DNA of 63,466 nucleotides from Candidatus Parcubacteria bacterium (GTDB lineage Bacteria > Patescibacteriota > Minisyncoccia > Phycocordibacterales > PALSA-1337), in NCBI GenBank assembly GCA_963766795.1, contig CAVYBN010000006.1, positions 1 to 63,466 on the forward strand, read 5' to 3'. The notes below the pieces were generated by a model. That model ran no database searches, had not been told where the DNA came from, and saw nothing but the letters and a program-made list of their open reading frames with translations. Both the position numbers and the translations under genes were made by a program. Shown one piece after another: positions 17,503 through 58,592 of the stretch. Every line of letters starts with the position of its first letter. Positions within the stretch are counted from its first letter, which is position 1.

Positions 17503-17632
17503 CAAAATTTCAAAATCCAAATAACAAATTCCAGATAAAATCCAAATTTCAATGATCAAAAAACGCCGTATCTTATTTTGAAATTTGAATTCTGAGATTT
17601 CTCTGTAATTTGAATTCTGAATTTTGAGATTT
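17503..17632 (-). repeat. Heptamer-arm element family A, copy 1
   Basis: Reverse complement aligns with 19311-19441 (CAGAGAAATCTCAGAATTCAAAT...TTTGATCATTG...TTATCTGGAATTTG). Confidence 0.9.
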
Positions 17633-26724: not shown

Positions 26725-28470
26725 ATGAGCGTACTCGACATCCTGCTCGAAAAGAAGCTGATCAGCAAGGATGACGTCCGCGAAGCGCGCAAGCGGATGT
26801 CTTCCGGCGCCACTCTGGAAGAAGCCCTGATCTCGGAAGGCGTCAAGCCAGACGACATAACTGCCGCCCGCGGCGAATTTCTGAATATCCCGGTCCGTGC
26901 CATCGCCGAGACTTCCGTGCCGTTCGAGGTCCTCGAATACGTCCCGCAGGAATCCGCCGAGCATTACCGTTTCGTGCCGATCGGCCTCAAAGAAGGCACG
27001 CTCGAGGTCGGCGTCGTCGATCCCGACAACATGGAGGCTCGCGACGCCTTGAATTTCCTGGCGGCCAAGAAGAACATCCCGTACAAGATGTATCTCATCA
27101 CCATCGACGACTTCCAGAAAGTCGTCGAGATGTACAAAGGCCTGACCGGCGAAGTCTCGCGCGCCCTGACCGAGCTCGAGTCCGAGCTCTCGGTTGAGAC
27201 CGAAGCCGTCAAGAAAGCACCGGGATCGCCGGCTCCGGGAGCGCCCGGCAAGGGCGACAAGAACGCTCCGGCCGAAGAGACGATCATCATCGAGGACGCG
27301 CCGGTGGTCAAGATCGTGGCGACCATCGTCCGCTACGCCGTCGAGGGAGAAGCTTCCGACGTCCACATCGAGCACATGCGCGACAAGGTCCGCGTGCGCT
27401 TCCGCGTGGACGGCGTGCTCACGACCAGCCTGGTCCTGCCGCCGCAGGTGCATTCGGCGGTGGTCAGCCGCATCAAAGTCCTTTCCAACATGCGCTTGGA
27501 CGAGAAGAGGAAGCCGCAAGACGGGCGCTTCTCGGCCAGGATCGACGGCCGGCGCATCGATTTCCGCGTCTCCACATTCCCGGCTTATTACGGCGAGAAA
27601 GTCGAAATGCGCATCCTCGACCAAGCCAAAGGCCTGCACGCTCTCGACGACATGGGAATGACGCCCGCCAATCTCTCTATGATCAAGCAAGCCATCGACC
27701 GTCCCTACGGCATGATCCTCATCACCGGTCCGACCGGTTCCGGCAAGTCGACGACGCTCTATTCTCTGCTGAACGAGGTCGACCGCGAGAGCTACAATGT
27801 TCTTTCGCTCGAAGACCCAGTTGAATATCAGATGGAAGGCGTCAGCCAGTCGCAGGTGCGGCCGGAGATCGGCTATGACTTCAGCTCCGGTTTGCGCACG
27901 ACGCTGCGCCAAGACCCGGACATCATCATGGTGGGTGAGATCCGAGACAAGGAGACCGCTCAACTGGCCGTCCAGGCGGCCTTGACCGGCCACCTGGTCT
28001 TTTCGACTTTGCACACCAACAACGCCGCCGGCATCATTCCGCGCTTGGTCGACATGGGCGTCGACCCGTATCTGATCGCGCCGACCCTCATCCTCGGCGT
28101 GGCCCAGCGCCTAGTCGGCCTCTTGCCGCCCAACGGGGGAGAGCTGGTGCCCGTCGAGGGCAGCATCAAGGCCATGATCGACCGACAGTTCAGCGACCTG
28201 CCGGCCGAATACAAGAAGAACATCCCCTGGAGCGACAAGGTGGCCAAGATCAAGGTCACCCCGGAATCGCCGCGCGGCACCCGCGGGCGCATGGCGGTCT
28301 TCGAGATGTTCACCATGGACAAGGACGTCGAGAGCATCATCCTCCACAATCCGACCGAGACCGAGATCGTCAAGTCCTTGCGCGCCAAAGGCATGCTGAC
28401 TTTGAAGGAGGACGCCATCATCAAGGCCTTCGAGCGCAAGATACCCATTGAAGAGGTGAATAAGCTATAG
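26725..28470 (+). CDS. pilB: Type IV pilus extension ATPase PilB/GspE
   Basis: ASDVHIE, PQDGRF, GPTGSGKSTTL (Walker A), LRQDPDIIMVGEIRD, GHLVFSTLHTN. Confidence 0.96.
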   Translation: MSVLDILLEKKLISKDDVREARKRMSSGATLEEALISEGVKPDDITAARGEFLNIPVRAIAETSVPFEVLEYVPQESAEHYRFVPIGLKEGTLEVGVVDPDNMEARDALNFLAAKKNIPYKMYLITIDDFQKVVEMYKGLTGEVSRALTELESELSVETEAVKKAPGSPAPGAPGKGDKNAPAEETIIIEDAPVVKIVATIVRYAVEGEASDVHIEHMRDKVRVRFRVDGVLTTSLVLPPQVHSAVVSRIKVLSNMRLDEKRKPQDGRFSARIDGRRIDFRVSTFPAYYGEKVEMRILDQAKGLHALDDMGMTPANLSMIKQAIDRPYGMILITGPTGSGKSTTLYSLLNEVDRESYNVLSLEDPVEYQMEGVSQSQVRPEIGYDFSSGLRTTLRQDPDIIMVGEIRDKETAQLAVQAALTGHLVFSTLHTNNAAGIIPRLVDMGVDPYLIAPTLILGVAQRLVGLLPPNGGELVPVEGSIKAMIDRQFSDLPAEYKKNIPWSDKVAKIKVTPESPRGTRGRMAVFEMFTMDKDVESIILHNPTETEIVKSLRAKGMLTLKEDAIIKAFERKIPIEEVNKL

Positions 28471-28557
28471 GGGACAGGGTGCAGGGTACAGTAAAAAATC
28501 AGAATTCAACATTTAATTTATACTTTCTACACCCTGTACCCTGTACCCTGTACCCTG
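28470..28557. repeat. GGGTACA heptamer-arm element family B, copy 1
   Basis: gggacagggtgcagggtacag ... ccctgtaccctgtaccctgtaccctg. Confidence 0.9.
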
Positions 28558-28570
28558 ATATACTATACCC

Positions 28571-28969
28571 ATGGCTGATCAACCTAATCAGAAGAAGATC
28601 CTCTTCGTCGACGACGACAAATTCCTGCTCGACATGTACGCCTTGAAGTTCTCCAAAGCCGGCTACGAGGTCAAGACCGCCGATTCGGCCGAAGCGGCCA
28701 TGGCTCTCCTCAAGGGCGGCTTCGCGCCGGATGCCATGCTCATAGACATCGTCATGCCAGGCACTGACGGCCTGGACTTGGTCTCCTCGGTGCGCTCCGC
28801 CCGCTTGGCGCCGGACGCCGCGATCATCATGCTCACCAACCAAAGCGCTTCCGACGACATCGCCCGGTCCAAGAAGCTTGGCATCGACGGCTTCGTCGTC
28901 AAGGCCACGACCATCCCCTCGGAAGTCCTGTCGGAGGTCGAGAAGATGATGGCGACGAAGAATAATTAA
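28571..28969 (+). CDS. Stand-alone response regulator (receiver domain)
   Basis: ILFVDDD, LIDIVMPGTDG, IIMLTN, FVVKA. Confidence 0.93.
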   Translation: MADQPNQKKILFVDDDKFLLDMYALKFSKAGYEVKTADSAEAAMALLKGGFAPDAMLIDIVMPGTDGLDLVSSVRSARLAPDAAIIMLTNQSASDDIARSKKLGIDGFVVKATTIPSEVLSEVEKMMATKNN

Positions 28970-29135
28970 ATTCCAAATTCCAAGCACCAATCTCCAAATG
29001 AAATGAAAATAACAAATTCCAAAAATCAAATTCCAGAAAAATCTCAGAATTCAAATTTCAAAGATAAGCTCAAAAACCTTTTGATCATTGGAATTTGGAG
29101 CTTATCTGGAAATTGTAATTTGGAATTTGTAATTT
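28968..29135 (+). repeat. Heptamer-arm element family A, copy 3 (left arm duplicated)
   Basis: Core CCAGAAAAATCTCAGAATTCAAATTTCAAA...TTTTGATCATTGGAATTTGGAGCTTATCTGGA. Confidence 0.9.
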
Positions 29136-29142
29136 AACTACA

Positions 29143-30202
29143 ATGGACTACCGCAAAGAAATCCAAGAGCTCGTCGACCTGATCATCAAGGAGAACGCTT
29201 CCGACCTGCATCTGTCGGCCGGGCGCACCCCGATCATCCGAGTATCCGGAGGGCTCATTCCTTTGGTCAAGAAGCCGGTCATCACGGATGCCGACATGAA
29301 GGGCTTCGTGGGCATCTTCCTCTCGGCCCCGGGCCGCGAGATCCTAGAGCGCGACAAGACCGCCGATTTCTCGTACAGCCTGGTCCAGACGCGATTCCGC
29401 GGCAACGTCTATTACCGCCAAGGGTCGTTATCCATAGCGCTACGCCTCATCCCGCGGGTCATCCGTACCCTGGCCGAGCTCAATTTGCCGCCGATCCTGG
29501 AGACCTTCACCCGCCGCAGGCAGGGATTCTTCCTGACGGTCGGACCGGTCGGGCAGGGCAAGACCACTACTCTGGCCACTTTGATCGAGATCATCAACCA
29601 GACCCGGGCCGAGCACATCCTGACCATCGAAGATCCCGATCGAATACCAATTCGAGTCGAAGCGCTCCATCATCGACCAGCGCGAGGTCCGCATAGACAC
29701 GCCGGATTTCAGCGACGCCCTGGTCTCGATGTTCCGCGAGGACATAGACGTCTGCATGGTCGGCGAGATGCGCGACGCCATGACCATATCCACGGCCGTG
29801 ACCGCCGCCGAGACCGGCCACTTGATCTTCTCGACCCTGCACACCAACGACGCTTCCCAGACCATCGACCGCATCATCGACTCGTTCCCGTCCGATCAGC
29901 AGGACCAGATCCGCGTCCAGCTGGCCGGATCGATGACCGGCATCTTCTCACAGCGCCTGATCCCGCGGATCTCCGGCGGCCTCATCCCGGCCTACGAGCT
30001 CCTGATCAACAACAACGCCGTCTCCAACCTGATCCGCGAGAAGCGCATACACGAGATCAACACGGTCATAGAGACCAGCTCGCAGGAAGGCATGATCGAC
30101 TTCAACCGCTCGCTGGCTGAACTGGTCAGAGCGGGGGAGATCACGGTGGAGAGCGCATATTTGAACTCGCATAATCCGAAAGTCCTCGAAAAAATGATTT
30201 GA
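29143..30202 (+). CDS. pilT: Type IV pilus retraction ATPase PilT (+1 frameshift near 29637)
   Basis: ASDLHLSAG, GPVGQGKTTTL, TIEDP|IE, VGEMRD, GHLIFSTLHTN, RIIDSFP. Confidence 0.95.
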
Positions 30203-30203
30203 A

Positions 30204-30276
30204 AGGGTACAGGGGTCAGGGAACAGGGTACAGTAAAACTCAAAACCACACCCTGTACCCTGTACCCTGTACCCTG
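30204..30276. repeat. GGGTACA heptamer-arm element family B, copy 2
   Basis: agggtacaggggtcagggaacagggtacag ... ccctgtaccctgtaccctgtaccctg. Confidence 0.9.
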
Positions 30277-48891: not shown

Positions 48892-49021
48892 AAAATTCCA
48901 AATTTCAAATCACAAATTCCAGAGAAATCTCAAAATTCAAATCTCAAATGGCACCGGCTCATGGTTTTGATCATTGGATTTTGGAGCTTTTCTGGAATTT
49001 GATTTTTGGGATTTGAGATTT
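48892..49021 (+). repeat. Heptamer-arm element family A, copy 4
   Basis: CAAATTCCAGAGAAATCTCAAAATTCAAATCTCAAA...TTTTGATCATTGGATTTTGGAGCTTTTCTGGAATTTG. Confidence 0.9.
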
Positions 49022-49075: not shown

Positions 49076-49756
49076 ATGATCTATTACGACAAAGTCTCGA
49101 AGACCTATCCCGACAAGACCGTGGCTCTGGAAGGCGTCAGCTTCGGCGTGGAACCCAAGGAATTCGTGACGATCGTGGGGCCGTCGGGCGCGGGCAAGAC
49201 CACGCTAGTGAAGCTACTCATAGCCGAGGATTATCCGACCGGAGGCGCCGTCTACTTCGAATCCAGCGATATCCACCGCATGAAGAAGCGCGACATCGGC
49301 AAGCTTCGCCGCCGCATCGGCATGGTCTTTCAGGACTACCGCCTGATCCCCGGGAAGACCGTCTACGAGAACATCGCCTTCGCCATGGAAGCGGCCGGCC
49401 GCAAGGACGCCGAGATCGCGGCCGACGTGCCGCACGTCCTCGAATTGGTGGACCTCGGCCATAAGATCTGGAATTTTCCCGGTGAATTGTCGGGCGGAGA
49501 GCGCCAACGCGCGGCTATCGCGCGGGCAATCGTGACTCAGCCGGACGTGGTCATCGCCGACGAGCCGACCGGCAACCTCGACCCGGCCAACACCTACGAG
49601 ATCGTGCGCATCCTGAAGAAGATCAACGAGCTGGGCACGACTGTATTGCTGACCACGCACAATAAAGGCGTCGTCGATACCGTCGGAGGCAGGATTATCA
49701 CCATGGAAAAAGGGAAGGTGATCAAGGATGACAAGAATGGGAAGTATATATTGTAA
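49076..49756 (+). CDS. ftsE: Cell-division ABC ATPase FtsE
   Basis: GPSGAGKTT, VFQDYRL, LSGGERQRAAIARA, IADEPTGNLDP. Confidence 0.93.
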   Translation: MIYYDKVSKTYPDKTVALEGVSFGVEPKEFVTIVGPSGAGKTTLVKLLIAEDYPTGGAVYFESSDIHRMKKRDIGKLRRRIGMVFQDYRLIPGKTVYENIAFAMEAAGRKDAEIAADVPHVLELVDLGHKIWNFPGELSGGERQRAAIARAIVTQPDVVIADEPTGNLDPANTYEIVRILKKINELGTTVLLTTHNKGVVDTVGGRIITMEKGKVIKDDKNGKYIL

Positions 49757-49762
49757 AGTTGT

Positions 49763-49846
49763 GTCATTCCCGCGAAAGCGGGAATCCAGAGTTGAAGCAC
49801 TAACCTAAATGGTTAAACCCTGGATCCCCGCTTACGCGGGGATGAC
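49763..49846. repeat. CGTC-type REP doublet, copy 4 (intergenic ftsE-ftsX)
   Basis: GTCATTCCCGCGAAAGCGGGAATCCAG...CTGGATCCCCGCTTACGCGGGGATGAC. Confidence 0.9.
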
Positions 49847-49922
49847 AAGGCAATGATCTGTGATTTGGAGCTTGGAATTTTCAAAGGTGTATTAATCAGA
49901 CGAATCCTAGTATAATGACCGT

Positions 49923-50879
49923 ATGGTCTTCACCACTTTTAAGCGTATTACTCGCACCGGCTTCGTGAACTTCTGGAGGAACGGCTTTCTGTCGTTCGCG
50001 GCTATCGTGGTCATCACCCTGTCGCTCCTGGCCTTGGGCGGGCTCATCTTCGCCGGCGCTTTCGGGCGGGCTCTCATCTCAGACGTCAAGGATCAGGTGG
50101 ACATCAACGTATATTTCACTCTGACTGCCCAAGAATCAGACATCCTGGCTCTGCAAAAGAGCGTCAACGCCTTGCCGGAAGTCGCTTCGACGGCCTATGT
50201 CTCGCGCGATCAGGCCCTCACGGCCTTCCAGGCCAAATGGCAGAACAACACTCTGATCATGCAAGGATTGCAAGAGCTCGGCTCGAACCCATTCCCGGCC
50301 TCGCTCAACATCAAAGCCAAAGACCCTGGCGAATACGGCGGCATCGCCGATTACTTGAACAACAAGAGCCCAGTCGATGCTTCCGGCACGCCGATCATCG
50401 ACAAGATCAATTATCAGGAGAACAAGCTGATCATCGACCGCCTCGGCAAGATCATCCCGGCAGTCGAAGAGGCCGGCACGGTCGTCGCGATCATCTTGGG
50501 CCTAGTGGCCGTCGTCGTCGTCTTCAATACCATCCGGCTCATCACTTTCACCGCCAAGGACGAGATCGCCGTGATGAAGCTGGTCGGCGCCAACAATATC
50601 TTCGTGCGCGGACCATTGCTGGTCTCCGGCATCATGTATGGCATCGTCTCCGGGGTGATCGCGCTCGTCGTCATGGCAGCCGCGGCCTATTGGAGCGACA
50701 CGCTCATTTTGCGATTGGCGGGCGTGGACGTGGCGGCCAACTTCTCGCTGGCGGTCAACGTCTTCTCGAGCTATTTCAACCAGAATTTCGGAGAGCTCTT
50801 CGCGATCATCATGGGCAGCGGCATCGTCCTCGGTGGATTATCGAGCTACATCGCGGCTAGGAGGTATTTGAGGGTGTGA
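49923..50879 (+). CDS. ftsX: Cell-division permease FtsX
   Basis: NFWRNG, NPFPASL, NTIRL...EI.VMKLVGA...P; four TM helices. Confidence 0.93.
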   Translation: MVFTTFKRITRTGFVNFWRNGFLSFAAIVVITLSLLALGGLIFAGAFGRALISDVKDQVDINVYFTLTAQESDILALQKSVNALPEVASTAYVSRDQALTAFQAKWQNNTLIMQGLQELGSNPFPASLNIKAKDPGEYGGIADYLNNKSPVDASGTPIIDKINYQENKLIIDRLGKIIPAVEEAGTVVAIILGLVAVVVVFNTIRLITFTAKDEIAVMKLVGANNIFVRGPLLVSGIMYGIVSGVIALVVMAAAAYWSDTLILRLAGVDVAANFSLAVNVFSSYFNQNFGELFAIIMGSGIVLGGLSSYIAARRYLRV

Positions 50880-51026
50880 TGGTGGTAAGCGGTTAGCCGA
50901 ATTAGATGCCCCAAAACCTTCGTAGCACCGCCTTTTCTTGACCGCTTGACTTTTATAGACAAGTGTAGTACCATAATATGCGAAACTAAGGCTCAAAACA
51001 AACCTTAGTAAAAAGGAGATTTTAGA

Positions 51027-51224
51027 ATGAAAATCAGCTCTTTGTTAATAGCCGTAGCGATTGGTCTCGCAATGGCCTTGTTGTTTTCGTGGAAATGGAT
51101 GCCAAAGCGCCGGCGAATTCTCGGGACGGCTCTGCTTGTTTCAAGCCATCCCGCGAATTCAATCCTCTTCGAAAATCATACGCCGTATCAGGTCAATTCT
51201 AGTCATTTTGACAATGACAAATGA
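51027..51224 (+). CDS. Small membrane protein (hypothetical)
   Basis: AGGAG ribosome-binding site 7 nt upstream; hydrophobic N-terminus. Confidence 0.45.
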   Translation: MKISSLLIAVAIGLAMALLFSWKWMPKRRRILGTALLVSSHPANSILFENHTPYQVNSSHFDNDK

Positions 51225-51552
51225 CATTGGTTTGTTATGGCCGGGCGCATCTCATTGTCGTCTACGATTGTGCCAGTAATGGCGATGGAGAGATTTCGTT
51301 ACGGTTGACGGCGACGCGGATCAGGAAAGTCGGATGTCTGGTCAGTGAAACTAGGATCGGAAGCGCCACGCGCCGCATTCACACGGGCACAAACTGCCCG
51401 GCCCAAGCATCGATACTTCGCAGTTTCGATTTCAAATGACCGGCCAATACCGGTTTGCACAACAGAGAGGAAGTCCTCTCTGTTTTTTATTCCTTCACGC
51501 GATATCCCCACCTTTTCCAACCAGAACAATGATTTTAAGCTATTATTAGCGC

Positions 51553-54500
51553 ATGAAAAAGGTACATTCGGCATTAGCGGTTTCTGTATGCGGTATCATA
51601 TTTCTCCTCGTTTTTGTCTTCCAAATCATCCATCCGATTGTAGCCCACGCTCAAAGCTACGACGGCAGCGTGATAGGTTATATGTATCCAAGTGACGGCG
51701 CTTCTCCAACCGCTATCACCGATAGCCCCGGACTTCAGCTTATGAATCAGAGGGCCGTATACGCATGGATCACTTCTATCAAGCTCAACACAAGCGCGGC
51801 TGTCAATGTTGTAGATTGTACGATGGGAAATAATACTTATGTCTATAAAACCTTTACCGGTCCGGGAACTTTTTCCATGAATTATCCGGACCAACGCAAT
51901 GATTCATGCCTCGCCATCCAATTAGTGTTGCCAACCTCTGTCTCTGCTACTATCACTCTCGCCGCCACGACCGTAAACACGAGTTCCATTAAGCTTTCTT
52001 GGAATGACCCGTACACTGATACCACCAAATACTATGTTTGTTCTGACACGAATCCATTCTCCGGTCCTTGTGATACCAGCCCGGGTTCCGGTCTCATTGC
52101 CACTATCGTCTCGAATGCCACCAAGAGCCATGCGAATACTGCGACCTCGTACACCAATACCGGTCTGAATCCTAATACCCAATATTACTACGCGGTCGAA
52201 GCCGCCAATCATCCTGATATACAGTCAGACACTGTTTCAGCGACGACGAATCCAAATCCTGCGCCGGTCATCACTGCTGTTTCACCGACTACAGCTGTTT
52301 CTGGAAGCGGCGCGACTATCACCGTTATAGGCTCAAATTTTAACTCAGCCGATGCACTGGAGATCGCAGAAGGTTCGACTGTTTACTCAAGGCCTACCAT
52401 AACGGCTAACAGTGCTGGGACGACTCTGTCATTTGTTCTTCCAAGCGCTATGACAAGCGGCATATACAACCTCACGGTATTTAACGCAAATGGCATAGGA
52501 AGCAATTCAGTCAGTCTCACGATTACGGCTTTGCCGGTCAATAACCCTCCGAGCAATCTCACGGCGACCGTTATTTTGAATTCCACCCGACAAGGAGTGC
52601 AGCTGAATTGGACCGATAACGCGTCTCAAGCGGCAAATGTCTTCGTCATGCAGACAAATTCTCAAGAAGGAAAGCCTCCCAGCGCGATCGCCATGCTTCC
52701 TTCCGGATCCGCATCATATTTTGACGATTGGAATAGCGCCACTCTGTCAACGCCACAAGAAAATTACGAGGTCTCTGCGATGCTCAAAGACAACTCCTTT
52801 ACCGCCCCATCGAATCTCGTCTCGGTTTCCAACTGTCAGCTTATCGCCGGAAGCGCCACGGCGCCGTACAAGATCGTATTTATGAGAGGCACGAGCGTCA
52901 GCCAGACCAAGAATCAAATGAGCTCCATGGGCGGTTTCTTGGCGAACACACAGAGAGTCATCAGTCAAGGTTTTGACGGGATCCAGCCGTTTGAACACTA
53001 TTTTGACGAGTTTGCTTTCTATCTCGATGCGCAGGCAACTCCCGATACTGATAGCCACGGTAAACATCAATAACGTCACAAGCTCTCTGATGCAAAATTC
53101 AAGCTGTGTCGGCAACATAGATCCCATTGAATATATATTCTACGCCAACGATCCAAATGGCGTAAATAACCCAGGCGGTCCAGCATACGCATATGCGCCG
53201 AATGCTCCTACTCCGGGGTTTGTATACATAAACATCGCACCCATTTCTTTTTTTGGAGGCTCTACCGGCGGAACAATCAATTGGAATTATTTTAATTGGT
53301 CGCCTATCGTCGAGATGCATGAGACCGGACATGCGTTCGGAGGGCTGTTTGACGAATACATAGATGACAAATATGGGAGCCTATGGAATGCCTCTGCGAG
53401 GATGAATCATGCTTCACCGGCGAATTGCACCAGCAATCCTAAGCGCGATTACCGCAGTCCAGTCGATAACCTGATTTACGGATCAGTCAGTGATGTCGGG
53501 TGTCTCTACGTGTATTATCGGGGCGTTCTGAGTCTGGGTCTTCCAGGCATCAACTATTATCGTCCGAGCGTTACCGGCATCATGAACACCGCTGACGACG
53601 GCGAGGGAAATCTGAAAGCCCCATTCGAGTTCAATGTCATAGATTGCGGATACATCGTCGCCCGTATACAAGGAGTGCCATACGGTCAATTGACGCCAAA
53701 AAATGTCGGCCAATATTGGCCGCTGTGCAAAGCCATGGCCCAGCAGGGAACTGTTATTTCAGATGACATACCACCGGCGATTCCTGCGCCTATAATCAAC
53801 AATGGCATATCGTCTGGCGGCATGAACGAAGATGTCGGTTCTTCCAACGCTGAAGACGAATCGTTCATTGTATTAACCCCCGGCGATCCGACTGTCACCG
53901 GCATAGGCTTCACGCCGACGGGGAACAGCGTCCAATTCACGGATGTAACGGACAGCACGAAGACATACGAAGTCAACGACATCTCGTCTCCTAACGGCAA
54001 GACGCTTACATTCACAATGCCGACTGACGATCCGATACCCGCGGGGACATATCAGTTGCGGACCGGCGCGTTCAACAGCCCGTGGAGCAATTTCATTACG
54101 GTCACCGTGCTCGGTTCAGACTTGAGTTCTCTGTCGCCGTCGCTCGCGACTCCTAATGCTCCCGTTACCGTTACGGGGATCGATTTGCCGACCCAACCGA
54201 CCTCTAAGCCCGTGGTCATGGCTTTCTTTCAAAACGGCCGTCAGGTGACGACGGTTCCGGTAACACTCGTGAGTTCTTCGACTCTGCGTTTCAATCCGCC
54301 GCAGAATGTAGCCGCCGGCAATTTTACCGTCGCTCTGGCCTACAATCCGTCCGCCCAGCTCAACGGCCCGACTACCCAGATCAGCAACAGCTTGCCTTTT
54401 ACCGTAGCGGGAAATTCAGCGCCGACCGCATCTTCATGTCCCGCTGGCTATACTTGCACATATACTGCGACATCGACTAAGATCAGCAATGTCGTGCCAG

Positions 54501-55586
54501 CTCTCGTTTCCGGCAAGCTCCCGACTTCCGCCGTCCTTGCCCCTCCCGCCGTCACCGCCTCGAACGTCGCAGCTCCCCTCTCCTTCCACCCTGGCCTCTA
54601 TAAATCCGACTCACGCTCTGCCGGGCGTTACCTTGACCGTCTCCGGCTACAACTATCCCAACTCTGCTTCCCACAGCCTCTTCATCTACGACTCGTCGGG
54701 GATGTTCGTCGGCAAGGTCAGCAATACCGCGCAAGGCTCCGGGGGGATAGCCTTCACGGTGCCTTCAGTCAGCGCCGGCAATTACTCCGTCGCCGACATC
54801 GTCTCCGGCCAGTCCGCGCAAAGTAACCGCCTCCCATTCGCCGTCGACGCTCCGGCGAACCTGACCCCGACTATCACCCAAGGCCCGCTTGAGACCAACA
54901 CCACGCTGATGACACAGTCCAATGTGGCTATATACGGCTCCAACTTCACTCCGACAGGCAATGACGTCAAAGTGAACGGCGTCGACGTCGGCGCGAACGG
55001 CGCCAACGTGGGCAGCCTTCCATCCAGCCAATCAGGACAGATGATCACCTTCAGTCTCCCGTCTCTGCCAGCCGGCACGTATCCGATCATCGTCAGCAAC
55101 GCCAACGGCATCAGCAAGTCAGTGAATCTCGTCGTCGATCCGGCTCCGGCTCTCGCCATCACCCAGATTAATCCCTCTTCAGGCCCGCTCGGCACCACGG
55201 TGACCATCACAGGCAGCGGATTCACGACTGGCACCGGCAGCAACGGAAATGACGTCTATATCACGTCGTTGGACGGCAACTATAGCATCATCGTACGCGG
55301 CGTCCAATCAACAAACGGGACTACTCTCACGCTCACTTTACCAACCACATACTCAGAGACGCCGGGTGTTTACACTGTCAACATCCAGAACACCAACGGC
55401 CAAACCAACTACCAAAGCAGTAATAGCAGTACCGACTTCACGCTGACGGCGCCTACGACTTCCGATGCGGATACCGGCTCGAATAACGCCGCCGGTTGGT
55501 ATGCGGTTAGTTATCCGGCATTTAATGGAGCTGGCATGACCGCTAGCGTGTGGAACATGTTTCTGGATCTATTTAAGAACTGGTAA
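51553..55586 (+). CDS. Large secreted multidomain protein: FN3, IPT/TIG repeats and M64-like zinc metallopeptidase (two +1 frameshifts)
   Basis: Signal peptide ending AHA; SIKLSWN...YYYAVEA (FN3); repeated I..I.P.....G..VTI.GS.F (IPT/TIG); HETGHAFGGLFDEY. Confidence 0.8.
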
Positions 55587-55655
55587 TAACAAAGCTTATA
55601 TACCACTGTCGATATTTTTGGTTATTCACGTGTTTCATGTTAAAATAAAAGCGCT

Positions 55656-56052
55656 ATGCTAAACATGGACGCTCTAAAGCCGCAGATCAAAGAATTAGCC
55701 GAGAGATACGGCCTGTCTTTGGTTGTGCTCTTCGGATCGCAGGCGACCGGAGCGACGCATCCGAAAAGCGACGTAGACATCGCGGTTTTGAGCACGCAAA
55801 CCTTTGACCGCGACAAGCGCCATGACGGTTTTTGGGATATCTTCAAGAGAGACGACGTGGAGATGGTCAATATGGGCACGGCTTCTCCTACGATGATGTA
55901 CGTCTTGATCCGCGACGGAAAAGCTCTTGTATGAAAACGCGTCCGGAGCGTTCATGAAATGGAAATTTTACGCCATATGGGTATGGTTGGATACCGCTTG
56001 GTTGCGGAGATTACGCGATAAAAAAATGATCGAATGGGCCAAGACTGCATAA
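55656..56052 (+). CDS. MntA-like nucleotidyltransferase (+1 frameshift near 55925)
   Basis: VLFGSQATG...SDVDIAV; C-terminus continues in the next frame to TAA at 56052. Confidence 0.85.
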
Positions 56053-56069
56053 TCACATGATCAGAGAGA

Positions 56070-56542
56070 AATAATCAATAACCAAGTATTCCAATAACCA
56101 AACTCTGCTGACCGTGTTTGGTTATTGTATCTTGGTTATTGTGATTTGAGGATGATTGTAGAGAGGATCCTTTTGATTTCATCACCCTCTTGCATCAACT
56201 TCATCATTCTCTTCTTAAGGGTCGGATTTGCTTCAGCGACTAGCTCCAGCCAATGAAGGCACTCCTTGGATTCTCTACGAGATATTTTTAGGCGCAGGAT
56301 GAAATCCTTTTTACCGAGAGCATCATTCGCTTCTCGGTAATTCGCGCCTATTGATCCGGCTGATCCCGCGACCTGACCGGATAAACGCCCATTGACGGCA
56401 TTTTTTGGCAACGCATTGCACAAGCGAATCACCCTCTTGGCAAAATCTGTGGTCCGTTTTTCTAGGTTAAATTGCATATTTGTATGTTTGGTCATTGTGA
56501 TTTGTAATTTGTTTGGTCATTGTATCTTGGTTATTGGTTATT
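56070..56542 (-). mobile_element. Heptamer-arm element carrying a four-helix-bundle gene
   Basis: 26-bp direct repeats (56116-56141 and 56511-56536, one mismatch) flank the gene; an inverted arm lies at 56070-56103. Confidence 0.65.
56136..56477 (-). CDS. Four-helix-bundle protein (TIGR02436/23S rRNA IVS-protein family)
   Basis: NLEKRT, SAGSIGANYREA, KDFI..LKIS.RE..E..HWLEL. An alternative ATG at 56495 lies inside the repeat arm. Confidence 0.92.
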   Translation of the reverse strand: MQFNLEKRTTDFAKRVIRLCNALPKNAVNGRLSGQVAGSAGSIGANYREANDALGKKDFILRLKISRRESKECLHWLELVAEANPTLKKRMMKLMQEGDEIKRILSTIILKSQ

Positions 56543-56555
56543 ATATACTCATTCA

Positions 56556-58592
56556 ATGCCAAAGAAGATATCTCACAGACCTGTCCGGAATCAAAAAAAG
56601 GCCCCGAAACCCCGCCACAAATACATATTCGTGGTCGGCGGCGTGATGTCGGGGGTGGGAAAGGGCGTAGCTACCTCATCTATCGGCATGTTGCTGTCCG
56701 CCAAAGGCTACAAGGTCAACTTGGTCAAGGTGGATCCTTACCTGAATGTGGACGCCGGCACCATGAATCCGACCGAACATGGCGAAGTGTTCGTGCTGAA
56801 TTCAGGTCTGGAGACCGACCAGGATATGGGAAACTACGAGCGATTCATGGGCCACGACTTGGATCCGGACGACTACATGACATCAGGCATGGTCTATAAG
56901 TCGGTGATCGACCGCGAGCGCAATCTCGGCTACGGCGGCAAATGCGTCGAGACTCTGCCGCATGTGCGGAACGAGATCATCGACCGATTCAAGAAAGCCG
57001 CCGTGGCTGCCAAGTCAGACATCTCCGTCATCGAGATCGGCGGCACGGTCGGCGATTTCCAGAACGCGCTCTTCATCGAAGCGGCGCGCGTGATCAGGCT
57101 ATCAAATCCGGGCGACGTGACTTTCATCATGGTTTCGTACCTGCCGGTCCCGGGGACATTGGGCGAGATGAAGACCAAGCCGACCCAGCACGCGTTGTCG
57201 ACCTTGAATTCGTACGGCATCCAAGCGGATTTCATCATCGCGCGTTCGACGCACGAGGTAGATCTGAAGAGAAAAGAGAAGCTCTCGCTCATCTGCAATG
57301 TCAGGCCGGAGCGGGTGATCTCGGCTCCGGATATCTCGAGCATTTATGACGTGCCAGTGAATTTCGAGAAGGATCATCTGAGCGACTTGCTTCTTGAGGC
57401 CTTGAACTTACCGAAGGTTAAGACTTCCGATTCATTCAAGGCCTGGAAGAAGCTGGCCAATGGCATCAAGAATCACGGCCGGCATGAGGTGCATATCGGC
57501 GTGGTGGGGAAGTATTTCAATACGGGCGATTTCATCCTCTCTGATTCCTACATCTCGGTCTTGGAGGCGATCAAATTCTCGGCGTACGCGGTGGGTGTGA
57601 AGGCGGTGATTCACACGATCAATTCGAGAGACTTTGAGAGTGATGCGAAGTCAGCAGTTTCCTCAAGGTCTGCGGGACTCGCTTCGCGAAATGGCACGGC
57701 TCTCCAGTCGCTCGGCCGAAGCCGAATTGCTCCTGTCGATCCGGCCATTTCTGCTCGCTCAAACAGTCCTCGACCTATCGGAACCTCTGACTTCGCATCC
57801 CTCGAAGCCTTCGATGGTATCATCGTTCCTGGGGGCTTCGGATCGTCAGGAATAGAAGGCAAGCTGGCCGTCATTCGCTACGCGCGTGAGAATGGCATAC
57901 CGTATCTCGGATTATGCTACGGCATGCAACTGATGACCATCGAATACGCCCGCGACGTCCTCGGTCTCAAAGGCGCGAACACCTCGGAGATAGACCCGAA
58001 ATCGCCGCATCCGGTCATAGACATCATGCCGGACCAGAAGAAGAAGATGGCTGAAAGCGACTACGGCGGCACGATGCGACTGGGTCAGTATCCGGCCAAG
58101 CTCATGAAAGGCACGATCGCGCAGGAAGCCTACTCTCAATTCGCCGGCAAGAAGCTGCCCAAAGCCACTACAATGATCAAGGAGCGCCACCGCCATCGCT
58201 ATGAGGTCAACCCGAAGTACATCGAACGCCTTGAAAAAGCCGGACTGGTCTTCTCGGGGCGATCGCCTGACGGCACTCTCATGGAGATCGCCGAATTGCC
58301 GCGTGAAGGCACGGCTGGCGCGAAACATACTCACCCGTTCTTCCTAGGAACGCAATTCCACCCTGAATTCCTGGCGCGCCCGCTCATGCCGCATCCCTTA
58401 TTCACGGAGTTCATGAAAGCGGCGAAAAGCAGAAGCCGGGAGCTTGGAGCTAGGAGAGAGGAAGAAGAAAACAAAGAAGAGATTAGAGATAAGAGATTAG
58501 ATATTAGAGAAGAAAAAGGAACGGAAAACACAAGCGGAAATAATGCGCAGGAGATAGATACTGATCGGTTGGAATCAGAGGCGGCGGATTAG
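56556..58592 (+). CDS. pyrG: CTP synthase with an in-frame palindromic insertion and repeat-derived C-terminal tail
   Basis: GGVMSGVGKG, DPYLNVDAGTMNPTEHGEV, TKPTQH, PGGFG, GLCYGMQ, ERHRHRYE, QFHPE. Confidence 0.98.
   Translation: MPKKISHRPVRNQKKAPKPRHKYIFVVGGVMSGVGKGVATSSIGMLLSAKGYKVNLVKVDPYLNVDAGTMNPTEHGEVFVLNSGLETDQDMGNYERFMGHDLDPDDYMTSGMVYKSVIDRERNLGYGGKCVETLPHVRNEIIDRFKKAAVAAKSDISVIEIGGTVGDFQNALFIEAARVIRLSNPGDVTFIMVSYLPVPGTLGEMKTKPTQHALSTLNSYGIQADFIIARSTHEVDLKRKEKLSLICNVRPERVISAPDISSIYDVPVNFEKDHLSDLLLEALNLPKVKTSDSFKAWKKLANGIKNHGRHEVHIGVVGKYFNTGDFILSDSYISVLEAIKFSAYAVGVKAVIHTINSRDFESDAKSAVSSRSAGLASRNGTALQSLGRSRIAPVDPAISARSNSPRPIGTSDFASLEAFDGIIVPGGFGSSGIEGKLAVIRYARENGIPYLGLCYGMQLMTIEYARDVLGLKGANTSEIDPKSPHPVIDIMPDQKKKMAESDYGGTMRLGQYPAKLMKGTIAQEAYSQFAGKKLPKATTMIKERHRHRYEVNPKYIERLEKAGLVFSGRSPDGTLMEIAELPREGTAGAKHTHPFFLGTQFHPEFLARPLMPHPLFTEFMKAAKSRSRELGARREEEENKEEIRDKRLDIREEKGTENTSGNNAQEIDTDRLESEAAD

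Follow-up and report, generated by a model that had tools for sequence, protein, structure and literature searches.

Between a nucleotidyltransferase gene and the CTP synthase gene (pyrG), a gene for a small four-helix-bundle protein is surrounded by several copies of one arm sequence. The locus raises the question of which of these arms bound the gene and whether gene and arms are copied as one piece. An earlier sequence-only reading interpreted it as a minimal mobile or repeat-propagating system bounded by direct repeats. This interpretation was borne out in part: the tie between gene and arms and the copying of the whole block stand, and the direct-repeat bounds do not. The window, i.e., the whole stretch of DNA analyzed (63,466 nt), is contig C6 of a 916-kb assembly of 18 contigs (G000).

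The Four-Helix-Bundle Gene and Its Protein

The encoded protein matched the PF05635 profile at residues 13-112 (E 1.6e-16, 60.9 bits vs. a cut-off of 33.8) and the TIGR02436 profile with E 5.5e-22 (78 bits vs. a cut-off of 24). The gene at 56136-56495 is thus a full-length member of the family by the curated cut-offs, and the TIGR02436 assignment made from the sequence alone was correct. PF05635 was the only Pfam match of the cassette-encoded protein, with no match to a Y1 (IS200/IS605-like) transposase. The closest solved structure is PDB 2RLD (E 4e-12). A total of 1610 homologues of the 113-aa protein were found at E <= 1e-10, with a top identity of 81%, and their start corresponds to the Met at 56477.

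It had been noted that the stop codon and an alternative ATG lie inside the direct repeats. This holds for the stop codon (TAA, 56136-56138), which is located inside the arm 56116-56141, but the ATG of the 26-bp repeat (56517-56519) is not in the reading frame of the gene. An alternative ATG that is in frame, at 56495, sits in a partial third copy of the arm. Between the gene copies found at the same junction in related genomes, dN was 0.13-0.34 and dS was saturated. In the two pairs where it could be computed, dN/dS was ~0.18, which indicates purifying selection on the gene.

The flanking genes show two irregularities. The MntA-like nucleotidyltransferase gene (window 55656-56052) is broken into ORFs of 92 aa and 41 aa, with an extra A at 55919, and is an intact 128-aa gene in assembly L230. 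At 56592, in the 5′ part of pyrG, there is an A-run indel relative to L230, which is either a homopolymer sequencing error or a sign that the true pyrG start lies downstream of 56556.

Arms and Folds at the Locus

The features of the locus are collected in Table 1. The arrangement described earlier from the sequence, with the gene between direct repeats and an inverted arm following, was confirmed. The 26-bp direct repeats read GTTTGGT[T/C]ATTGTATCTTGGTTATTG, with one T/C difference between the copies at 56116-56141 and 56511-56536 (two matches vs. none expected in 100 shuffles). The partial copy at 56486-56504 repeats 56132-56148 as TTGGTYATTGTGATTTG, and a 25-nt tandem repeat spans 56478-56523.

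Table 1. Features of the four-helix-bundle locus (positions in the window).
Feature	Position	Strand	Remark
Outer inverted arm (a3)	56070..56103		reverse complement AATAATCAATAACCAAGTATTCCAATAACCAAAC
12-nt loop of the local hairpin	56104..56115		TCTGCTGACCGT; reverse complement ACGGTCAGCAGA
Inner arm copy (first direct repeat)	56116..56141		holds the stop codon of the gene
PF05635/TIGR02436 four-helix-bundle protein gene	56136..56477	minus	113 aa; 119 aa if the start is 56495
Partial third arm copy in the 5′ leader	56486..56504		GTTTGGTCATTGTGATTTG; holds the alternative ATG
Outer arm (a'1 in gene orientation), contains the second direct repeat	56511..56542		runs into TATATACT

The arm at 56070-56103 has two possible partners. 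Its local partner is 56116-56141 (-29 kcal/mol; z about -7.2 and -7.7 on the plus and minus strands, respectively), and the two arms make up a complete short-loop hairpin of the gene-less type, located between the convergent four-helix-bundle and nucleotidyltransferase genes. At long range it pairs with 56511-56542. The latter pairing is the one found in the minimum-energy fold of the 493-nt sense RNA, in which the gene is enclosed (-143 kcal/mol, z -6.3). The stems fold on both strands. The outer arm 56511-56542 together with TATATACT ends 6 nt short of the start codon of pyrG (56556).

The word TTGGTYATTG occurs eight times in the window, seven of them at this locus, vs. 0.16 expected; its two forms are present in 20 copies in the whole genome, eight of them on the contig of the window. 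The unit TTGGTCA is what we take to be a cyanobacterial STRR unit. The inverted-repeat score of the cassette is 14, compared with a genome median of 7. A consensus scan of the arms revealed neither a sigma-70-type promoter nor a terminator. The interval 55500-57000 contains no rRNA match, and an Rfam search returned no family.

PF05635 Genes and Heptamer Hairpins in the Same Genome

On inspection of all six PF05635 genes of the genome, at least four of the five outside the locus proved to be flanked by inverted heptamer arms, and the unit differed from gene to gene (ATTCAAG, ACAGGGT, AAAAGTC-like and CTAAG-like). When flanking inverted repeats were scored for 928 crudely called genes (99th percentile = 16), four of the five scorable resident PF05635 genes fell in the top 13, with scores of 26, 24, 17 and 14 (Fisher p = 1e-7). 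The proposed tie between gene and heptamer arms was thereby supported. Higher scores were obtained only for four copies of a 308-aa, insertion-sequence transposase-like gene and for one other gene. The 308-aa gene has terminal inverted repeats (score 28) and is probably an insertion sequence (C9:64134-65058, C8:60314-61238, C7:118580-119504 and C10:21014-21938). Three non-PF05635 ORFs of 144, 230 and 603 aa also lie inside strong inverted repeats (scores 19-29), at C8:46408-46840, C11:38298-38988 and C7:26631-28440, respectively.

In the 916 kb, we found 109 strict heptamer arrays, with intergenic junctions favoured. The commonest arrays (AAAAGTC, ACAGGGT and AAGATTC) are the arm units of three resident genes. 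The result of a whole-genome 7-mer profile scan was not used, since the scan lacked stringency in AT-rich DNA.

The gene-less elements at 17503, 19311, 28470, 28968, 30204, 46779 and 48892, which had been regarded as empty versions of the cassette, are real heptamer hairpins but consist of other heptamers and do not belong to its family. An empty hairpin of the same family does exist elsewhere, in the layout predicted to remain after deletion between the direct repeats: C9:56425-56505 consists of an arm, a 12-nt loop and an arm, and its right arm (C9:56474-56499) is identical to 56116-56141 at 26 of 26 positions. Lone arms of the family are present at C15:19375-19405 and C7:53004-53035.

Gene-less arrays were found to match the arms of the resident gene of their own genome, as the gene-arm tie would have it. 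A threefold ACAGGGT repeat has 53 matches in G000 and none in the other 60 genomes of the genus. The only other genus genome with the gene type that carries ACAGGGT arms here is G017; its gene, 61% identical and at the same junction, has TAGGGTA arms. Threefold TAGGGTA has 10 dispersed matches in G017, 19 in G061 and none in the 58 other genomes, and of the nine G017 regions distant from the gene, at least eight fold into gene-less hairpins. The match between hairpin variant and resident gene gave a Fisher p of 0.0016.

In the family of the cassette (a-type arms, A-type gene), the association of arms with the gene is weak (p = 0.03). Its arms are most numerous in G003 (21 arm matches), where the A-type gene was not found in an assembly that is 88% complete, and G029 (100% complete) has a-type hairpins without an A-type gene. 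Strict dependence of a-type hairpins on a resident A-type gene was therefore rejected. At least five near-perfect a-type gene-less hairpins occur in G003 (L271-L275), and their loops share a TAGCAGC/CAGCAG-like motif. The 12-nt loop and the arms of the local hairpin at our locus resemble them. PF05635 genes are absent from 19 of the 61 genus genomes.

In the type IV pilus operon of the window (pilB, response regulator, pilT, pilC), a heptamer hairpin is located at three consecutive junctions (28469-28556, 28968-29135 and 30204-30275). The pilT gene is read here in two frames, as the overlapping ORFs 29143-30120 and 29729-30202, which suggests a frameshift near 29.7 kb. At the pilT-pilC junction, at least 22 of 29 relatives have a gap of 3-57 nt and no hairpin, and three other relatives carry arrays there that consist of different units. 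Since these gaps are compact in most relatives, the hairpins are lineage-specific gains.

The ftsX-pyrG Junction

The order ftsX, then pyrG, is conserved in the genus, and about 48 junctions were examined. Four are filled with the cassette (G000, G078, G062 and G073). About 20 are clean, with a gap of 13-150 nt, no arm and a promoter-like GTAGACAA...TAGAAT, and about 15 contain other inserts of 250-1230 nt. In G031, a lone arm lies directly before pyrG. Further filled junctions came from other assemblies (L027, L028, L037 and L042). The arm end followed by TATATACT is kept in every filled locus whose gene is antisense to pyrG, and it is what remains in G031. Both filled and empty states thus exist at the orthologous junction, as had been anticipated, but the empty junctions are clean and no hairpin is left in them. 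We found no allele with the 395-bp deletion. An independent assembly that is 99.5% identical, the only other one to encode an identical protein (L230), is also filled, and an exact search of metagenome contigs with a 24-mer of the hairpin loop gave no other match.

In G000, ftsE and ftsX lie 5 kb upstream of the element, and surface-protein genes and the nucleotidyltransferase gene have been inserted in between. The junction (window 49076-56556) is a hot spot, with ~4.7 kb of inserted TIG/fn3 surface-protein genes and the nucleotidyltransferase gene.

On a pyrG tree of 31 rows, left after 24 rows were dropped because their approximate starts ran into stop codons, the filled state requires at least four changes. 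The identity of the four-helix-bundle protein does not track that of pyrG (rho -0.31; 28 non-independent pairs of a 113-aa protein). Hosts with 84-89% identical pyrG have four-helix-bundle proteins that are only 62-72% identical. In L027 and L028 (pyrG 89%, four-helix-bundle protein 72%), the gene has opposite orientations and belongs to different tree groups. As a weak test, the mismatch between the two proteins and the opposite orientations suggest cassette replacement or repeated insertion at this one junction.

Arms in Related Loci

Eighty loci with 59-71% protein identity were collected from species-representative genomes of Patescibacteria, Omnitrophota, Planctomycetota and Chloroflexota. 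In nearly all fetched loci the same word family is shared, with ...AAGATAC AAGAAAC AATAACC AAAC AAATT... upstream and its complement downstream. Among 82 evaluable subfamily loci (protein 59-81% identical; inverted-arm threshold score >=12), 69, from several phyla, have inverted arms of this word family. The earlier reading had proposed to check whether such genes are flanked by direct repeats plus an inverted arm. At 13 of the 82 loci (16%), spread by our reading of the protein tree over at least eight lineages, the upstream arm is repeated in direct orientation behind the stop codon, as at 56070-56542, but 58 of the 82 have inverted arms only. By this count, the inner arm 56116-56141 is an add-on. 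At L112, the two outer arms pair with each other almost perfectly (score 43); it is the inner arm that does not fit.

The similarity of arm 6-mers is 0.095 within the subfamily of the cassette, 0.018 between subfamilies and 0.014 between different subfamilies in the same genome; the difference within vs. between subfamilies was reached by none of 2000 label permutations. At 60-65% protein identity, arm similarity is 0.090 in the subfamily of the cassette, compared with 0.026 and 0.033 in two others, whose arms are of the NNNNYAG and GAATYAN types, respectively. Strong arm conservation is specific to the subfamily of the cassette. Its 32-nt arm is identical at 29-31 of 32 positions among our locus, L027, L042, L043 and L037. 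Since synonymous sites are saturated, such identity means that the arm sequence is either under selection or continually homogenised. A strict, family-wide "cognate arm" hypothesis was rejected, as the arms of subfamilies B and C are at background similarity by ~60% protein identity. This drift implies that a cognate sequence is not strictly recognised throughout the family.

Nested elements were also found. At L021, an a-type arm pair surrounds another gene that has arms of its own, and L029 shows the reverse arrangement, with an A-type cassette before ftsE nested within the arms of a second family. In the window, a hairpin with 56-nt arms of the AAATTCC family (48893-49021) is located just upstream of ftsE.

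The Copied Unit

Two paralogue pairs define what is copied. L046 and L047, located 0.68 Mb apart in one Moraniibacteriota genome, are 94.4% identical over 605 bp, and the homology extends exactly from outer arm end to outer arm end between unrelated flanks. L280 and L281, of another subfamily in G276, are 99.8% identical over 461 bp with boundaries likewise at the arm ends. Gene plus arms is hence the duplicated unit, and the idea that the protein gene travels with heptamer hairpins was upheld. The claim that the element ends at the direct repeats was not, since the copied units end at the inverted outer arms. Judged by these pairs, the four-helix-bundle cassette is bounded by inverted outer arms and not by direct repeats. 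No target-site duplication, as expected of a transposon or MITE, was present at the four copy ends, and the within-genome pairs could result from gene conversion between older copies, not from fresh transposition. The L280 copy abuts a resident array of its own heptamer. The comparison shows the gene with its inverted arms as a unit that is conserved, selected and occasionally copied. In the related bacteria compared, this unit is copied, swapped and lost as a block.

Origin of the Locus

We regard it as rather probable that two members of a single hairpin-repeat family have been joined at the locus, namely an intervening sequence (IVS)-type cassette and a gene-less hairpin. The cassette would consist of the PF05635 gene within inverted arms of CAAG/CCAA-type 7-base words, with 56511-56542 and 56070-56103 as its outer arms. 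The inner arm 56116-56141 and the neighbouring outer arm would represent a gene-less hairpin fused to it, most simply by recombination between members of the hairpin family, and this fusion would give rise to the 26-bp direct repeats. The stem is predicted to form in transcripts of either strand and to be processed by RNase III like an IVS of 23S rRNA. By analogy with Avd, the accessory protein of diversity-generating retroelements (DGRs), the protein would bind heptamer stems of its own family, and the gene-bearing element may act as the master copy for non-autonomous hairpins. Processing, stem binding and the master-copy role are drawn from the Coxiella IVS (PMC4990558) and the fold relation to Avd. 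The arms would permit exchange by homology, which would explain both cassette replacement and fusion with resident hairpins. The arm adjoining pyrG has probably been co-opted as the pyrG promoter, and its conservation may partly reflect promoter function. As the gene runs antisense to pyrG, the upstream arm may be missing from its own mRNA. On the other side, we saw neither an enzyme nor an excision product.

A broader proposal, which we put forward tentatively and consider possible although doubtful, is that PF05635 genes and heptamer hairpins form a self-propagating two-part system of the REPIN-RAYT kind without a recognisable enzyme, with the gene-bearing element as master copy. By recognising stems built from its own heptamer, the encoded four-helix-bundle protein would give rise, at operon junctions, to families of gene-less hairpins peculiar to each genome. 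The direct-repeat layouts would then mark places where a gene-bearing copy was integrated, guided by homology, at a hairpin already present. If this is true, 23S rRNA IVSs and much unexplained bacterial heptamer DNA would be special cases of it.

The composite reading has to be weighed against a model in which the 26-bp direct repeats delimit an insert, the gene, that enters and leaves an empty hairpin by Campbell-type or integron-like recombination. A 395-bp circle would be released, and arm, loop and arm would be left behind. The expected deletion junction (loop, one arm, GGTTATTATATACTC) would read ...CCAAACTCTGCTGACCGT + GTTTGGTYATTGTATCTTGGTTATTG + GTTATTATATACTC, and the circle junction ...TGTGATTTGTAATTT + GTTTGGTYATTGTATCTTGGTTATTG + TGATTTGAGGATG. 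The repeats are real, the empty hairpin on C9 has the shape of the predicted product, the layout recurs in several lineages, and the L280 copy adjoins an array of its own heptamer. All the same, within-genome copies end at the outer inverted arms, most loci have inverted arms only, and the outer arms of L112 pair almost perfectly without the inner one. Moreover, the empty ftsX-pyrG junctions carry no hairpin, the 99.5%-identical assembly is filled as well, the loop 24-mer has no other metagenome match, and no recombinase is linked to the cassette. We therefore consider this model improbable.

A regulatory module that has been domesticated and has no present mobility, with hairpins as processing sites, terminators or promoters and the protein as a host RNA-binding regulator, is unlikely, if somewhat less so than the insert model. 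It would fit the purifying selection, the position of the element at operon junctions, the stems on both strands and the local hairpin between convergent genes. It would also fit the lone arm in G031, and the arm end with TATATACT that stands 6 nt ahead of the pyrG start wherever the gene of a filled locus is antisense. Yet most genus members lack the element at this junction and have a different promoter-like sequence instead, the hairpins are lineage-specific gains and not conserved sites, about a third of the genus genomes (19/61) have no PF05635 gene, paralogous copies lie at unrelated loci, and the consensus scan of the arms gave no promoter or terminator. Chance juxtaposition of an unrelated small gene and heptamer hairpins would be easiest in a hairpin-rich genome such as this one, whose strict arrays favour intergenic junctions. 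It is extremely unlikely in view of the enrichment in G000, of the same arm words flanking the subfamily in other phyla and other gene contexts, and of TTGGTYATTG, with seven of its eight window matches at the locus and only 20 copies genome-wide.

Comparison with Known Systems

The nearest published system is the ORF-bearing IVS of 23S rRNA, known from Coxiella burnetii (the S23p ORF in helix 45) and Leptospira, whose ORF belongs to the same PF05635 family as the cassette gene; it was in such IVSs that the family was originally recognised. In Coxiella, the ORF lies in the loop of a ~28 bp stem formed by terminal inverted repeats, and tandem heptamers GACAGAT adjoin its start codon (Warrier et al. 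2016, PMC4990558). This IVS is a horizontal acquisition; it has been suspected of being mobile, but no movement has ever been demonstrated (PMC4990558). The cassette likewise has terminal inverted repeats that form a long stem around the ORF, as seen in the 493-nt fold. It is not inserted in a 23S rRNA helix (9, 25 or 45), however, but lies between the nucleotidyltransferase gene and pyrG. Furthermore, the Coxiella ORF is decaying, whereas the cassette gene is under purifying selection, and the cassette has an extra inner arm and coexists with gene-less hairpins of the same heptamer. RNase III cleavage has been shown for the IVS (PMC4990558) and is predicted for the cassette.

New in this work are the composite nature of the direct-repeat form, its 16% recurrence, the survey of the ftsX-pyrG junction, the two paralogue pairs that define the copied unit, and the two-genome match between arm and hairpin heptamer variants. 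IVSs of 23S rRNA and heptamer arrays have stayed unexplained for ~30 years and have been treated separately; the cassette and its relatives link the two, as the PF05635 family travels with inverted heptamer arms outside rRNA. The function of the protein becomes a direct experimental question, that of binding to own vs. foreign stems and of mobilisation of the element. The findings also bear on how the very small genomes of the candidate phyla radiation acquire promoters, terminators and processing sites.

The cassette protein is related in its four-helix-bundle fold to Avd. Avd forms a pentamer and binds nucleic acids. In contrast to a DGR, the locus has no reverse-transcriptase domain in ORFs of >=150 aa at 49.5-63.5 kb, and neither a reverse transcriptase nor a template/variable repeat was found within 6 kb on either side of the cassette. 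PF05635 is mentioned in a DGR context (PMC10053308), and a literature search under the family names returned only papers on DGRs and rRNA insertions.

As in REP/REPIN-RAYT systems, inverted copies of a repeat stand on both sides of a gene, the same repeat also occurs scattered through the genome without the gene (C9, C15 and C7 for the cassette family, and the hairpins of the ACAGGGT and TAGGGTA families), and the families are lineage-specific. Unlike a RAYT, the cassette protein is a small helical bundle without Y1-transposase motifs, its arms are tandem heptamer arrays and not a single palindrome, and heptamer hairpins also occur in genomes without the matching gene. The arms resemble the GGGNATC heptamer arrays of Xanthomonas and Nostoc in their period of 7 and in having about four units per array. 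Those arrays lie between co-oriented genes and are transcribed (Rehm et al. 2015, PMC4692102). In that paper, the arrays are accounted for by G-quadruplexes, and no gene family linked to them is mentioned; the arms of the cassette differ from these arrays in being AT-rich and paired as inverted arrays.

With integron attC cassettes, the locus shares a small ORF attached to an imperfect hairpin, and direct repeats that would permit excision of a circle. It differs in having no integrase, attI or cassette array, and in a copied unit that ends at inverted arms. The only recombinase genes nearby form a cluster downstream of pyrG (window 59307-63450) and encode a serine recombinase, an IS110-family transposase and a DDE transposase; they lie 3-7 kb away from the element and are unrelated to it.
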